In this document: in pieces, positions 15,401 to 30,400 of the stretch
Position numbering within the stretch: the stretch's first letter is position 1
How the letters are laid out: every line of letters starts with the position of its first letter
NCBI GenBank assembly: GCA_965279375.1
Contig: OZ257156.1
Location: 3,488,001 to 3,552,000, forward strand
Direction of reading: 5' to 3'
DNA from: Gemmatimonas sp.
GTDB taxonomy: Bacteria > Gemmatimonadota > Gemmatimonadetes > Gemmatimonadales > Gemmatimonadaceae
DNA length: 64,000 nt
Position numbers: made by a program

Positions 15401-18400
15401 GCGCTCCCCGCTTCCCGACGACTTGCGGCGCTCCATCGCGGCCATGAGCGGGATGCCGGAACTCGCCACGACGGATGCACCGCTCGATGTCTTCCGATTC
15501 TTCCAGGCCGACGAGCCTGTCGTTCCCGAACCGACCGACGACGAACTCGAATGAGGGCGTGCCGGGCGCGTCCGCGCGCTCGGCCATGTTGGACGACGAA
15601 GATCGGGCTTATGACGTGGTCGTGCGTGTCGCTGACCAACGCTACGGCATCCCGGTGTCGCAGGTCCGGGAGGTGCTGCGCCCGGGAGTGATCACGCGCG
15701 TGCCCGGCGCCCCCGAGATCGTGGTGGGTATCGTCAACGTGCGGGGCGCTGTCGTCACCGTGCTGGACCTTTCCGCACTGTTGACGGGAGAACGTGCCGT
15801 CACAGCGGCCTCGATCGTCCTGCTTGAGCACGGGACCCGCCTGGTTGGGCTGGCCGTGCAATCGGTGCGCGATGTCCGCACGATCCCGAGCGATGCTGAA
15901 GCCAGCAGCCTGGAGGTCGGCGCGGACGAGGACGTCGTACCGTTGGATGCGGCCGCGTTATGTGCGCGGCATCTGCTCTCTTCCGAGGAGATGCGACAGT
16001 GAGCCGGACGGTACTGATTTGCGACGATGCGATCTTCATGCGCACGATGGTGGGGGATATCCTCACGCAGGCGGGCTTCGAGATCATTGGCGAAGCGGAA
16101 ACGGGTGTGCAGGCGGTCGAGAAGTATCAGCAGCTCCGTCCTGATCTGGTGACGATGGACATCGTGATGCCCGACATGGGTGGCATCGACGCGGTCCGCG
16201 AGATCACCAAGCACGATCCGACGGCGCGCATTCTCATGTGCAGCGCGATGGGCCAGCAGGCGCTGGTGGTCGAAGCGATTCAGGCCGGCGCCAAGGACTT
16301 CGTCGTCAAGCCGTTTCAGCCGAGCCGAGTGCTCGAGGCCGTGACGCGCGTCCTCGCCGCGTAAGCGGCAATCGCTCCGTCGTACCGGGACGCACGCGAT
16401 GGACCAAGCCCGATACGCGGAGCTCTTTCGCACCGAGTCGCGCGAGCATCTCGGCGAGATCGATGCGGCGCTGCTCGAGCTGGAACAGACGACCGATCGC
16501 ACGCGCCAGAGTGCCGCGATCGCCACACTGTTTCGCGGCACCCACACCATCAAGGGGATGGCGGGGGCGATGGGCTACGCAGTCGTCGAGCAGGTCGCGC
16601 ACGCACTGGAATCACTGCTCGAACGCATGCGGTCTGCCGGTGCATCGGTTGATCGTGCGCTGACTGCGCTGCTGTTCGATGGGAGCGACGCATTGCGTGT
16701 GGCGCTCGACGAAGCCGGCGCGGGGGATGCCCCCTCGAGTTCAGTGATCGAGGTGCTGGCACGGCTGCGCAGCACTGCGGGCGCGTCCGGTGCCGCTTCG
16801 GCCGCGCCGACGCCTGCGCCCAGTGTACCCTCGCTCGAGTCCGCGTCATCCTCGCCGACTGCAGAGACGGCCGCGATCGAGTCGCGCGTAGTCGACGTCG
16901 CACTGACTGCCGATTGTCCGCTCAAGGGCGTGCGCGCGATGCTGGTGATGGCGAGACTGCGCGCCGTGGCGACGGTGCACGCGGTGCAGCCGCCCGAAGA
17001 ACGCTGGGGCGACGAACGCTTTGACGGGGTTTTCGCCGCAAGCTTCTCCGGCGCGATCGATGCGACCGAACTCGAGGCAAGCCTGCGCGCGGCCGGTGAC
17101 GTTGCCAAGGTCCGCATTCGCGCCGCCGACCAAACGAACTCATCGCGCGCCGACAATGCGGCCATGCGCACAGTTCGTATCGACTTGCGTCGTCTCGACA
17201 CGCTGCTCGATCTGGTCGGTGAGTTGGTGATCACGCGCGACCGTTTGCTGCGCGAGACCGAACGCGCGATCGACTCGGGAGCAAACCGAGCGCTCGCGCG
17301 CGCTGCGCAGGACACGGCGCGACTGGTGAGTGCGTTGCAGGACGAAGTGCTGCAGGCGCGCATGGTGCCCGTTGGCCAGGTGTTCGACCGCTTCCCGCGT
17401 CTCGTGCGTGACGTGGCGCGCGAACTGGGCAAGGAAGTGCACTTCACCACAGAAGGGCGCGACCTCGAACTCGATCGATCACTCATCGATGCCATCGGTG
17501 ATCCGATCGTGCATCTGCTGCGCAACGCGCTCGATCATGGCATCGAGGAGCCCGCGCAGCGACGGGCGGCGGGAAAGCCGTCTACGGGTGAGTTGGTGCT
17601 ACGCGCCGGCCGTGACCGCGCAACAGTGGTGCTGCAGGTGGAGGACGACGGTGGTGGCATCGATCGCTTGGCGATTCTCGCGCGGGCGCAGGAGCAGCAG
17701 ATCGTAAGCGCAGACCTGACCACCCTCGACGACGATCAGCTGCTGATGGTTCTCGCACACCCGGGCTTCTCGACGGCGCGCGCGGTCACGGCGATCTCGG
17801 GACGAGGCGTGGGTGTCGATGTCGTCATGACGCGGGTGCGCGCGCTGGGCGGCACGCTGGAGGTGGAGACGCTCGAAGGGCAGGGCACCGTGTTCACGTT
17901 GCGCCTGCCGGCAACACTGGCCATCACGCGCGCGCTGCTGGTGCACGTAGGTGACGAAACGTACGCATTGCCTGCCGCACATGTGATCGAAGTCGCAGAA
18001 TACACGCCCGGCACGATCGTCACGGAGCAGGCGCACGAGCGCATGATGTGGCGTGATGAAATGCTGCCAGTGGTCCACCTTCGCGAGCGTTTCGGACACG
18101 CGCGCGCCGAACGTGAAACGTTTGTTGCCATCGTCGAATCGGCGGGACGACGCGCGGCATTGTTCGTTGATGCATTGCTCGCGCAACAGGACATCGTGGT
18201 CAAGCCGCTCGACGTGGTGCGTGGAAGTAGCGCGCTGTTCAGCGGCGCGACTGTGCTCGGTGACGGTAGCCCCGCACTCATCGTCGATGTAGGCGCGTTC
18301 TGCTGAGCGAACACGCGCCTGTAGTCCAGCTGGATTCCGAACGACTACCGATCTGACGTGATCGTTGCGCTGCCCGAACTGAAAGCGGAGTGAAGATGGA

Positions 18401-27400: not shown

Positions 27401-30400
27401 CGGCGCATGCGTGAGCTCAAGGGCACTGGTGAGATCCAGGCGCGGCTGATTGGCGGCGCCAGCATGTTCGCGCCTTTGCTGATTCCCGGTGCGCTCTCGC
27501 TCGGCGCGCGGAACATCGCAGCCGCGCGGGCCGCACTCGCTGCGGCGGACATTCCCGTGGTGGGCGAAGACGTCGGCGGCGATCACGGACGGTCGGTGCA
27601 CTTCGCGCTCGAGGATGGCAGTCTGTTGGTCAGGTCCGTGGCGAAGGGCGATGTCCGACTCTAGCGCTCCACTTCGTCGCGTCGGCGAGGGCTCCCGGCC
27701 ACGCGTGCTCGTCGTGGACGACAGCGCGTTCATGCGTCGCATCGTCAGTGATGTCGTTGCATCGAGCGGCGAGTTCGAAGTGGTGGGGACGGCGCGCGAC
27801 GGCGTGGATGCGTTGCGACAGGTGACGCGCCTCGATCCAGACATCGTCACGCTCGACGTGGACATGCCCGAGATGGATGGCTTGTCCGTGCTGCGCTGCA
27901 TCATGCAGGAGAATCCGCGCGCCGTCGTCATGCTCAGTGCAGGTGGAGCAGATGGCGGGGCTGATGCGACGCTGCGCGCGCTGGAACTCGGCGCCGTGGA
28001 GTTCGTGCGCAAACCGTCGGGAGCGATCAGTCTGGATCTCGAAGACGTGTCGGAGCAGCTGCTCGACGCACTCCGCGCCGCCGCGTGCATCAACCTCGAT
28101 ATTCTTCCGCGCCCGGTCGATCGCGGTGCTATCGCCGTGGAGTTGCCGCCGCACCAGCAGCACTCAGGACGTCGGGCCACGCAGCTCGTGTGCATCGCGG
28201 CCTCCACGGGTGGCCCTGCGGCACTGGCCAAGGTCATTCCCAAGCTGCCGCGGTTTGCGCAGACGGCGGTTGTGATCGTGCAGCACATGCCCGCCGGATT
28301 CACCGCGAGCTTCGCCGCACGGTTACGCGGCGCCTCGCGCCTGCCGGTGCACGAGGCGCGCAATGGCGATGCGTTGTTTGCGGGGCACGTCTATGTCGCG
28401 CCGGGCGGCTTTCATCTGCGTGTGGGCGGTCCGGCCGGTCTGCCGGCGCTCTTTCTGGACTGCGGCCCGACGGAATGGGGCGTGCGCCCTGCCGCCGATC
28501 CGCTGTTCAAGTCTGCGGTGCCGTACTTCGGCGCGGCGATCATTGGCGTGGTCATGACCGGCATGGGCTGCGACGGCGCGGCTGGCTTGGCCGCCGTGCG
28601 CAACGCTGGCGGTCTGGCGCTCATTCAGCAGCGCGATACGGCCGTGATTCCCGGCATGCCCGATGCCGCGCTGCGCACCGCAGGTGCCGATCGCATTGTC
28701 ACGCTGGACGAAATGGCAGACGCGATCGTCGAGTGCAACGCTCTGCGCGAGTCGAGTGCGAGCGATTCGTCGCTCTTCGAGGTCGCGTCGTGAGCACCGG
28801 TCAGTTCCGCTCGACGACCATGTTCGCGCCCCGCGCCCGCGCATCGGTTCCAGCGGTGGATCGCGCGACGTTCGTTGTCTTTGCGATGGCCGATCGGCGC
28901 TTCGCCGTGCCGGTCGAATCGGTGGAGCGGGTGCTGCGGGACTCGGTGGCGGCAGGTCCGGCGACCACTGCTGCGTCGGTGAACTACGGTGGCCAGTCGT
29001 ATGCCGTGGCCGATCTGGCCAGCGCGCTCGGTGTGGAGTTTGCACCCACGGCGGCGTCGCGTGTGCTGGTGCTGTCGGGCGGTGGAGAGCATCGCGCGGT
29101 GATCGTGGATCGGGTGCTGGAAGTCGCCACGATCGATGCCGGTATCGTGGAGGCGGCGGACGCGGTGCACGACGGGATCGCGGCGCTGCCGAACGCGGGC
29201 GTGCGCGGCGTCTTCACACGCAATGGCGCAGCGGTGATTGTTCTCGATGTCTCGCGCCTCCTCGACGAGACGTTGCACACCGCCCACGGCCCCGCCGCTT
29301 TCCGCAAGGAACGTTCGTCATGACGAGCAGCCCGCTGTCCGAACTGCAATCGCTGCGCGCACGACAGGCCGCGATCGCGTCGGCCTTGTCGGCCAGCCCC
29401 AGCGCGGAATCGCGAGCACAACTCAAGCAGGACATCATCGCGCTCTTTCGCGAGACCGATGCGGTCTACGCAGCGCTGGGCGAGCTAAAGTCCGACGTGA
29501 AGGCGTTGGCGGAGACGTGGAAGCAATTGGACGGCCGAAGCGCATCCAGTCCGCACGCCGGCGTCTCATCGCGGGTCGATCACTTGGGCGCGTCGACCTT
29601 CGTCGAGAAGGGGTGGTCCAAGCTCTCGCTCGGCGATGCGGCAGGCGCTGAAGTGGCGCTGCGGCGCGCGTTGGAACTGGCGCCGGCGGATGACGAAGCG
29701 GAAACGCTGCTCGGCTGGGCGCAGATGCTCCAGGAGCAGTATGACAGTGCGTTGCTCACGTTCCACAACGTGCTCATGCGCGACCCGCAGAACACGCTTG
29801 CCCGCACGAACGTGGGATTCATCTGTCTGCGCAAGAAGAGCTACGGCGAAGCCATCGAACATCTTTCGCGCGCCATTCGCATCGACAGCGATCGCAAGGC
29901 CACGCTGTACGCTCATCTCTATCTCGGCATGGTCTACCGCGAGCGTGAGATGTACGCCGACGCAGAACTGTTCTTCCGCAAGGCGATCGAGCTCGGACCG
30001 AATCTGATTCAGGCGTGGTACGAATTGGGTCGTGCCCGCTGGTTCGCCGGGGAGCACGCCGGTGCGCGCGATGCGTGGCGTGCCGGTGCGGAGGCCAACA
30101 AGTTCAATCCATGGGGAAAGCGCTGCGCCGAAACGCTGGAGTCGGTCGATCGTGGGGAGGCTCCGCCGCGCGACGCGTAGTTGCCTCGCTCGCGATGGTG
30201 GCGGGCCTGGCTTTCACCGCGATGTCTCAAGAGCCGATCGCCTTGCGCGGCGGCGTCCAGCTGAGTCGTGGCCGCTTTACCGTAGTGGCCGACCAGCGCG
30301 ATGCGCGACTCGCACAGTCGCTGCTCAATTCCGCGCTCGCGCAGGACAGCTTTCCGGGGCTGCCGCGCCCCAAGGCTCAAGTCCTGATCGGCGTCGCGCC

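Follow-up and report, generated by a model that had tools for sequence, protein, structure and literature searches.

A DnaA-derived protein in the chemosensory MglA operon of Gemmatimonadales as a candidate signalling adaptor

ATPases of the DnaA clade are known as replication proteins and as regulators of replication. Among described signalling systems, the Group 1 MglA systems with PATAN neighbors are one of those closest to the locus studied here, and one of them, GAU_1409 of Gemmatimonas aurantiaca, has been tabulated as ‘PATAN>MglA>-PATAN>’ (PMC4316618). The GAU_1409 locus is of the kind described below, with one unlabelled gene; this gene, between MglA and PATAN, is left unnamed, and the word ‘DnaA’ is absent from the main text and the two supplements searched. 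We analyzed a 64,000-nucleotide stretch of a Gemmatimonas sp. genome (the window), in which a survey had found an operon gene for a protein with two DnaA-type ATPase modules. In agreement with the survey's finding, paper searches returned no description of this DnaA-derived operon protein.

The operon lies on the forward strand, and its order proved to be the one the survey had given: cheW-cheY-cheA-cheC-TPR-PATAN-mglA-[DnaA-derived gene]-PATAN/TPR-cheD-cheB-cheW-TPR. It begins with cheW (15586–16002; Pfam CheW, start codon taken from the sequence), cheY (15999–16364; Response_reg, with the best NCBIfam match, CheY_Halo, under its cut-off), cheA (16399–18306; Hpt, P2, dimer, HATPase, and CheW domains by domain searches), and the gene of the phosphatase CheC (18390–19016; one copy in the genome by tblastn), followed by genes for a large TPR protein (19040–21676; start codon uncertain) and PATAN (DUF4388) protein 1 (21673–22842), which is degenerate compared to its relatives and gave no TPR row. 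Next is the gene of a second MglA GTPase (22868–23506), which resembles the solved MglA (alignment E 3e-64) and retains the equivalents of G21, R53, and Q82, MglA residues given in PMC3199381. Its stop codon overlaps the start of the DnaA-derived gene (23503–25467), which is followed, with a stop/start overlap of 1 nt, by the gene for a PATAN(DUF4388)-MshEN insert-TPR protein (25467–27188; PATAN-TPR), so the gene indeed sits between mglA and the PATAN-TPR gene of a chemosensory operon. The remaining genes are cheD (27185–27664) and cheB (27651–28793), both recognized by domain searches, a second cheW (28790–29323; Pfam), and a terminal TPR protein gene (29320–30180; domain and sequence searches). 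Compared to related loci, the window operon is a reduced form: three roadblock/MglB genes precede mglA in 17 of 20 related loci and cheR follows the PATAN-TPR gene in 14 of 20, whereas in the window no roadblock/MglB gene adjoins mglA (two roadblock matches lie elsewhere in the genome) and cheR is absent. No MCP match was obtained within the operon in the 34 loci examined; 96 of 101 operon-bearing genomes have an MCP elsewhere. A promoter and terminator scan gave signals no more frequent than chance. The locus adjoins an rsmH/ftsI division cluster.

The DnaA-derived protein has 654 residues, and its make-up was read from the translation, Pfam, and an AF2 model. It contains two Bac_DnaA stretches, and DnaA_N and DnaA_C gave no Pfam row at E ≤ 0.001, which agrees with the claim of two DnaA-type AAA+ modules lacking domains I and IV. 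The only other of the three PF00308 matches in the genome is the true dnaA, likewise located by the survey; it encodes 472 residues, lies at contig position 1198743 near the GC-skew minimum (1237553), and is followed by a dnaN-like ORF. The 654-residue gene, by comparison, is not beside dnaN or the origin and sits in the signalling operon far from oriC. Module 1 (residues 8–237; 23524–24213) has the domain III features of an AAA+ protein (Walker A and B, sensor I, Arg finger, and sensor II), with I190 replaced by His. It is followed by helix H1 (residues 258–277; 24274–24333), with a pLDDT of about 56–64, and by a helical repeat unit without a Pfam family (residues 278–368; 24334–24606). Module 2 (residues 374–604; 24622–25314), 37% identical to module 1, is intact in the window protein and degenerate or absent in many relatives. 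The chain ends in a conserved tail (residues 630–654; 25390–25464) of the form E-K-x-x-W-x-W-P...R-x-x-E-E, whose final codons also carry the GAGGAG ribosome-binding site of the following gene. The AF2 model bears out the fold of the modules (mean pLDDT 86.1) but not their arrangement, and a pTM of 0.49 does not define how the two modules lie relative to each other; past module 2, the model shows a disordered linker and a short helix. H1 and the tail, for which the genome holds no further match, have low confidence in this monomer model, as is common for segments that bind a partner. The family is built from an ATPase, then helix H1 and the helical repeat, an optional second ATPase, and the tryptophan tail.

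The survey had called the protein order-wide. An ATPase paralog was found in 95 of 105 genomes of the order and in none of 19 genomes of other classes; however, the distribution is class-wide rather than order-wide, as it also occurs in 5 of the 27 class genomes outside the order (these tallies include the unpublished genomes G087 and G116). One apparent Acidimicrobiia carrier (L083) holds a complete Gemmatimonadales-type operon and was set aside as misbinned. The operon is present in 101 of the 105 sampled Gemmatimonadales genomes, and the ATPase forms (95) together with miniproteins (6, see below) account for exactly the 101 genomes with PATAN-TPR; in the remaining four, ATPase paralog, PATAN-TPR, and cheC were all not found. 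The PATAN-TPR protein combines DUF4388 with the MshEN c-di-GMP motif NF053729, which is present in 35 of 44 orthologs, matches weakly in the window protein (E 0.00085), and is deleted in four of five miniprotein loci examined. The genome's own PilB also carries an MshEN c-di-GMP motif, and in Synechocystis, PilB1 and PilC are binding partners of PATAN domains (10.1101/2021.06.11.447907). Among the 101 PATAN-TPR-bearing genomes of the order, FlhA occurs in only 25, which is not the co-occurrence expected of a flagellar chemotaxis system, and PilM in 99. Presence of PilM or PilT discriminates little because almost every genome of the phylum has them (144 and 146 of 151, respectively). At least three PilT-family matches were found in 98 of the 106 genomes of the class that have PATAN-TPR compared to 1 of 26 without it, counts in which kin are not independent.

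These associations point to type IV pili as the candidate output. The same adaptor could instead act on exopolysaccharide and adhesion, or on polar growth and division, which we regard as unlikely. The Myxococcus Dif system is a precedent for an exopolysaccharide/adhesion output, and both the cheW-cheY-cheA-cheC order and the best NCBIfam matches of CheA, CheC, and CheD, which are of Thermotoga/Halobacteria type, recall Dif-type systems; the neighboring division cluster and the c-di-GMP motif of the partner fit as well. On the other hand, no EPS or EpsW-type gene was found among the annotated window ORFs from 9738 to 37082, the PilT-family expansion tracks the operon, and pili are the precedent for PATAN and MglA.

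Across relatives, the protein is reduced stepwise, from the tandem form through a tandem lacking lid 2 and a single module to the miniprotein. Several lineages have a degenerate second module or none, and three genera that retain the operon have lost both ATPases, with H1 and the tail persisting. In 6 of the 105 order genomes, these two segments make up a miniprotein of 60–100 residues coupled to PATAN-TPR, found in all six genomes that have PATAN-TPR without an ATPase paralog. Against an H1-plus-tail profile built from full-length proteins alone, the miniproteins scored 33–46 bits (40 bits for G025), and 1000 shuffles reached at most 8.5. All seven base changes between the miniprotein ORFs of loci L136 and L137 are synonymous, and the whole ORF is under purifying selection. 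In L136, the miniprotein has 60 residues and is encoded at 9903–10082, with the PATAN-TPR gene at 10085–11398. The double ATPase is therefore not the conserved core of the family, as module 2 is often degenerate or lost. A record with an in-frame fusion to a truncated PATAN domain (P0333) is a single case that could reflect a deletion or an error of assembly, and no support is drawn from it.

The most constant partner gene is that of PATAN-TPR rather than mglA. The stop codon of the DnaA-derived gene overlaps the PATAN-TPR start by 1 nt in 64 of the 81 loci, a count that includes duplicates of a genome. Covariation between tail and PATAN-TPR over 84 paired loci was uninformative, with a top z of 7.2 compared to 4.6–6.2 in five shuffled pairings and kinship uncontrolled. 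An alternative is that the DnaA-derived protein serves as an effector or exchange factor, with H1 and the tail docking on MglA, on a roadblock protein, or on one of the Che proteins. That mglA lies immediately upstream in 19 of 20 loci, with the stop/start overlap seen in the window, and that the operon MglA keeps its catalytic residues would suit such a role. It is nevertheless improbable, as the gene persists where mglA, roadblocks, and PATAN 1 are lost (L136 and L137) and where all che/mgl genes are missing and PATAN-TPR alone is retained beside it (L035 and L132); at the G025 locus, no mglA match was found either. Where the operon mglA is lost, the partner could be the canonical MglA, which is encoded outside the operon.

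The survey reported the Walker A, Walker B, and Arg finger residues as invariant in both modules. This was true of 30 of 30 close orthologs, but in a wider, noisier set they are intact in 124 of the 149 first modules and in 97 of the 120 second ones, and with sensor I added in 109 and 36, respectively. DnaA binds single-stranded DNA through the pair I190 and K222 (PMC6669920); the equivalents in the window protein are H85/Q117 in module 1 and V451/L483 in module 2. Position 190 of module 1 is H or N in all 30 orthologs. In module 2, an I190-like residue is kept in 30, K/R222 in 26, and R202 and R206 in 29 of 30. These residues bear on a link between polarity and the cell cycle, in which the protein would co-oligomerize with the true DnaA through an Hda-like Arg finger or cap DnaA filaments. 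The Arg finger in both modules, the filament-face residues R202, R206, R264, and L269 of module 2, and the lack of any other Hda-like PF00308 match in the genome speak for this link, which we hold to be slightly less probable still than binding to MglA: both ATPases are dispensable in the three operon-keeping genera, the more constant module 1 has lost R206 and H231, a clamp-like N-terminal motif is missing, the score falls under the Hda cut-off, and archaeal relatives occur in a lineage that is not known to use DnaA. The adaptor reading, for its part, explains the single-stranded DNA and filament residues of module 2 only as an interface.

The terminal EE codons are biased toward GAG (101 of 108 against 867 of 1085), and the last codon is near-fixed, so the tail is conserved in part because the next gene uses it as a ribosome-binding site. 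For the same reason, we rejected an Hsp90-like EEVD/TPR clamp reading of the last residues. That the miniproteins are only remnant leaders for translational coupling, the tail saying nothing about binding and the ATPase being the functional part, would account for this codon bias but is very unlikely, given that H1, more than 100 bases upstream, is kept in all six miniproteins, that E-19, K-18, P-12, and R-7 are kept in 58, 55, 54, and 58 of 60 sequences with mixed synonymous codons, and that purifying selection extends throughout the L136/L137 ORF.

Our preferred reading, to which we assign a probability of about one half, is that the protein is a DnaA-derived adaptor rather than a replication initiator, which would bind the PATAN/MshEN-TPR protein through H1 and the tail, carry an accessory nucleotide switch, and control type IV pilus polarity. 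H1 and the tryptophan tail would dock on the product of the next, translationally coupled gene, and they are brought together once all between them is deleted. Module 1, judged by its residues, would be the working ATP site that switches or oligomerizes the complex; module 2 would be an old duplicate offering mainly an Arg-finger face, in line with its frequent loss. The complex may join the receptor-less CheA/CheY/CheC/CheD unit and the MglA/roadblock GTPase switch to the pilus motor and so set where or when pili work, as PATAN and MglA biology and the co-occurrence suggest. Operon conservation, loss of domains I and IV and of the single-stranded DNA pair, and independence of flagella favor the survey's co-option into motility or polarity signalling; its emphasis on the tandem ATPase did not stand. 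This ATPase would have gained a new use with a class-wide DnaA copy that lacks the DNA-binding domain, belongs to a motility-signalling operon, and carries the wrong label ‘DnaA’ in databases. The natural deletion series singles out two motifs, making 60 residues the minimal reagent, and the operon, mostly in flagella-less genomes, offers an entry to movement and polarity in an abundant, little-studied soil group.

The helical repeat is also fused to a DnaA ATPase in giant Thermoplasmata proteins, where it occurs in tandem; a single giant chain has a possibly PATAN-like head, about eight repeat copies, an intact DnaA domain III, and zinc ribbons. Elsewhere in Thermoplasmata, the fusion partner of a DnaA module is a pilus-type ATPase, DUF835, or HEAT repeats; a further lineage has an MshEN-DnaA-helical-DnaA fusion. 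For the head (first 125 residues), Atlas features gave 0.88 for DUF2226 and 0.84 for PatA_N, but hhalign against PATAN was not significant and fold searches had no clear match: head and repeats reached a best Z of 7.3 to helical bundles, within background, and no Foldseek match at E ≤ 0.001. An Atlas search with the middle domain gave no usable match, and a metagenome scan for archaeal gene neighborhoods one irrelevant 1.1-kb locus. In trees, a single branch sets off all module 1 sequences, and another all module 2 sequences. One tree nested the archaeal domains inside canonical DnaA and a second set most domain-IV-less modules apart (SH-aLRT 92), both from quick searches that missed better trees; every grouping tried survived the AU tests (p 0.88, 0.74, 0.79, and 0.84). 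It is a tentative and rather doubtful proposal that the Gemmatimonadetes adaptor, the Thermoplasmata proteins, and the MshEN-DnaA lineage represent an unrecognized DnaA-type ATPase branch that serves type IV filament signalling in archaea as well as bacteria. Records that bear on this proposal are RLF66718.1, MCK5559233.1, and MFA5771387.1. If true, the initiator's ATP switch would be a module that can be reused for signalling, and bacterial-type DnaA domains would exist in some archaea, a surprise for the fields of archaeal replication and AAA+ evolution.

Each module shares its fold with DnaA domain III (B. subtilis 8btg/8bv3) and is 39–43% identical to the genome's own DnaA, and the summed score exceeds the TIGR00362 cut-off; databases therefore label family members DnaA. 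Unlike DnaA, the protein lacks domains I, II, and IV, has a broken single-stranded DNA pair in module 1, and adds a second module, a helical repeat, and a tail. Hda/HdaA is likewise a DnaA-type AAA+ protein without domains I and IV and with an intact Arg finger; however, the 654-residue protein scores 162.6 bits against TIGR03420 (NCBIfam cut-off 194.8), its N-terminus, compared to the consensus, has no clamp-binding-like motif, and the family adds adaptor motifs and can dispense with the ATPase altogether. Type II double AAA+ ATPases (p97, Rix7), which gave weaker Foldseek rows, also have two modules per chain, but the present family belongs to the initiator clade, is about 15% identical to them, and has a dispensable second module. 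The Myxococcus MglA-MglB-MglC-SgmX module similarly comprises MglA, several roadblock proteins, and large TPR proteins, with the difference that here they share one operon with CheA/C/D/R/B; no DnaA-like component is known in that module. Cyanobacterial PatA-type (Tax) regulators likewise place a PATAN domain with a helical insert in a che operon, and their output is type IV pili, but in the present operon PATAN is fused to TPRs instead of a receiver domain, and MglA/roadblocks and a DnaA-type ATPase are added.

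The 654-aa product of window 23503-25467 (+), here termed the DnaA-derived protein (P0001), contains two Bac_DnaA stretches (modules 1 and 2), and a Pfam search returned neither a DnaA_N nor a DnaA_C row. PF00308 matched three times in the whole genome, namely modules 1 and 2 and the true dnaA, which encodes 472 aa, adjoins a dnaN-like ORF, and lies near the GC-skew minimum; the survey's finding of tandem DnaA modules lacking domains I and IV, with the true dnaA elsewhere, was thus confirmed. Modules 1 and 2 share 43% and 39% identity with the genome's own DnaA and 37% (86/230) with each other. 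Named relatives of the protein assign it to Gemmatimonadota. An AF2 model (pLDDT 86.1, pTM 0.49) was confident for both modules and the middle domain (residues 278-368), but not for their mutual arrangement, the helix H1 (residues 258-277), or the C-terminal tail (residues 630-654). The gene order is cheW, cheY, cheA, cheC, TPR, PATAN, mglA, the DnaA-derived gene, PATAN-TPR (window 25467..27188), cheD, cheB, cheW, and TPR, with stops and starts overlapping between most genes. Elsewhere in the window, signal peptidase II (lspA) is encoded twice in tandem, at 13466-13999 and 13996-14532.

The operon was compared in 20 loci of 16-20 kb. The mglA-gene-PATAN order recurred in 19 of them; the gene order of the window itself is the che-PATAN-mglA-[gene]-PATAN arrangement reported earlier. 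Three roadblock genes precede mglA in 17/20 loci and cheR lies downstream in 14/20; both are lost in the window's genus, so mglA is an orphan there only locally. No receptor gene was matched in 34 loci. L136/L137 lack mglA, the roadblocks, and the first PATAN gene. Two loci (L039:15161-15958 and L052) carry an extra ExeA-like AAA_22 ATPase gene between cheB and cheW. In L050 (G145, a one-contig genome), the DnaA-like gene and PATAN-TPR are each broken into two frames, by sequencing error or decay. Five genomes with the ATPase paralog (G044, G056, G127, G130, and G166) gave no MCP match at E<=0.001, and L046 (G044) also lacks cheR, cheD, and cheB, which suggests receptor-independent use.

Our phylum sample comprised 151 genomes (105 of the order Gemmatimonadales, 27 others of its class, and 19 of other classes), including the unpublished G087 and G116. 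The ATPase-bearing paralog was found in 95/105 order genomes, 5/27 class genomes outside the order, and 0/19 of other classes; a separate order sample gave 50/61. Among 80 loci listed from a scan of 185,579 genomes, all holders were Gemmatimonadota except one contig (L083, labelled Acidimicrobiia), which carries an entire Gemmatimonadales-type operon and is probably misbinned.

Residues were numbered as in B. subtilis DnaA, their roles, including that of the ssDNA residue I190, following part of PMC6669920. In 30 close orthologs, module 1 kept Walker A, Walker B, sensor I, the Arg finger, and sensor II throughout (30/30), whereas sensor I of module 2 was kept in only 21/30 and F218 in 4/30. 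The invariance claimed for Walker A, Walker B, and the Arg finger of both modules stands in the close set (30/30). A wider set also takes in metagenome proteins that are fragmentary; there, all catalytic residues including sensor I were present in 109/149 of module 1 and 36/120 of module 2, versus 48/48 canonical DnaAs. By these counts, module 1 is likely the ATP site and module 2 may be an interface. Judged by sequence features, the protein stands outside the DnaA and Hda families, though its ATPase is the same.

Searching 1.84 billion representatives with a middle-domain profile produced 495 matches, the best 150 of which included 33 complete tandem and 19 single-module forms. Single-module proteins include some with Longimicrobium names and also occur in G083, G124, and G046; module 2 is absent from 114/164 full-length proteins, a biased census and not a frequency. 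Six order genomes have PATAN-TPR without the ATPase paralog, and in 6/6 a short ORF holding only H1 and the tail (miniprotein) occupies the same place, coupled to PATAN-TPR. Miniproteins are 60-73 aa long in five genomes (the start is uncertain in G025), span three genera, and score 33-46 bits versus <=8.5 in 1000 shuffles.

We give a probability of about 0.5 to the reading that the DnaA-derived protein is an adaptor: H1 and the tail would bind PATAN-TPR, the ATPase would act as an accessory ATP switch, and the complex would work in pilus polarity control. Another output of the operon is unlikely. Among the 101 order genomes with PATAN-TPR, FlhA was found in 25, PilM in 99, and MCP in 96, so the operon is not the flagellar system; G000, the genome that contains the window, carries a further two cheA clusters. 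PilM and PilT are near-universal in the phylum, and at least three PilT-family matches, which are not copy numbers and come from kin genomes that are not independent, occurred in 98/106 class genomes with PATAN-TPR versus 1/26 without. The MshEN c-di-GMP motif of PATAN-TPR is found in 35/44 orthologs, is weak in the window's genus, and is deleted in four miniprotein loci. PilB of G000 also carries this motif, in a pilB-pilT-pilC cluster (G000:C1:4889127-4893495). In Synechocystis, PATAN binds PilB1 and PilC, according to part of 10.1101/2021.06.11.447907, and the operon MglA keeps G21, R53, and Q82 (residues treated in part of PMC3199381).

That H1 and the tail have a partner other than PATAN-TPR is quite unlikely. 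ATPase forms and miniproteins together cover the same 101 genomes as PATAN-TPR, a co-occurrence, with adjacency established in fetched loci only; the remaining 4 of 105 order genomes gave no match to the ATPase paralog, PATAN-TPR, or cheC, no search for a miniprotein being made there. In L035 and L132, the DnaA-derived gene and PATAN-TPR alone remain of the operon.

A link of the DnaA-derived protein to DnaA and the cell cycle is distinctly improbable. In the close set, module 2 keeps an I190-like residue (30/30), K/R222 (26/30), and, in favour of such a link, R202 (29/30) and R206 (29/30); against it, R206 and H231 are missing from module 1, where H or N stands at I190. In 4/4 Gemmatimonadaceae (G000:C1:1198743-1200161; L102, L108, and L120), the linker of the true DnaA contains Q-[ML]-D-[MLF]-F, which 0/44 other DnaAs matched. 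We take this pattern to resemble the sliding-clamp-binding motif consensus; no Hda-like match was found in the G000 genome, and the linker possibly provides built-in clamp-dependent inactivation.

The tail EE codons are GAG in 101/108 (background 867/1085) and double as a ribosome-binding site, which cautions against over-reading tail conservation; the residues E, K, P, and R that precede these codons are conserved with mixed codons, and one tryptophan recurs in 60/60 junctions pre-filtered for a tryptophan somewhere. That miniproteins are remnants kept for translational coupling only is very improbable, all changes (7/7) between the two compared being synonymous.

Beyond the phylum, the repeat unit of the middle domain recurs in tandem in giant proteins (single repeats ~20-40 bits; common pattern W-x-x-x-G-Y...L-E...D-P), and three such clusters without DnaA bear Thermoplasmata names. 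Seven proteins of 900-3100 aa (P0002, P0003, P0006, P0007, P0011, P0025, and P0029) are built of this repeat; some of them add DUF835 or KaiC-like domains and tails rich in lysine, and several of the clusters are named Thermoplasmata. In 27 records, most with zinc ribbons, such repeats accompany a Bac_DnaA domain with no domain IV row; a Thermoplasmata name occurs in two of the clusters to which these records belong (RLF66718.1, MCK5559233.1). The archaeal records are all protein records from assembled metagenomes. Of 11 archaeal DnaA domains audited, 10 have I190, K222, and the filament residues intact; glycine at 267 is common to archaeal domains, module 1 (109/149), and module 2 (86/120), versus 3/48 canonical DnaAs. 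For the head domain of the archaeal proteins, structure prediction gave a confident model with mixed beta/alpha fold, whose resemblance to DUF2226/PatA_N is only a lead. P0336, P0337, P0340, P0346, P0409, P0410, and P0416 join a DnaA domain to a type II/IV secretion ATPase (Thermoplasmata record MFA5771387.1) or to DUF835 and HEAT repeats. Eight MshEN-DnaA-helical-DnaA proteins (P0311-P0317, P0320; 1867-1999 aa) form another family of tandem DnaA modules that lacks domain IV. Trees gave no decision between one and several origins of the DnaA modules.

PATAN proteins are described in part of PMC11580455 as little-studied MglA neighbours. A table in PMC4316618 records a locus of this type as PATAN>MglA>-PATAN, giving the gene in the middle no label, and the portions of its text and supplements covered do not mention DnaA. 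In the literature searched, which included few subscription papers, no description of the DnaA-derived protein, the miniprotein, or the archaeal DnaA fusions was found. The DnaA-derived protein is real, conserved, and apparently undescribed. Its operon is of the chemosensory-MglA-PATAN type plus a component that no known system has.
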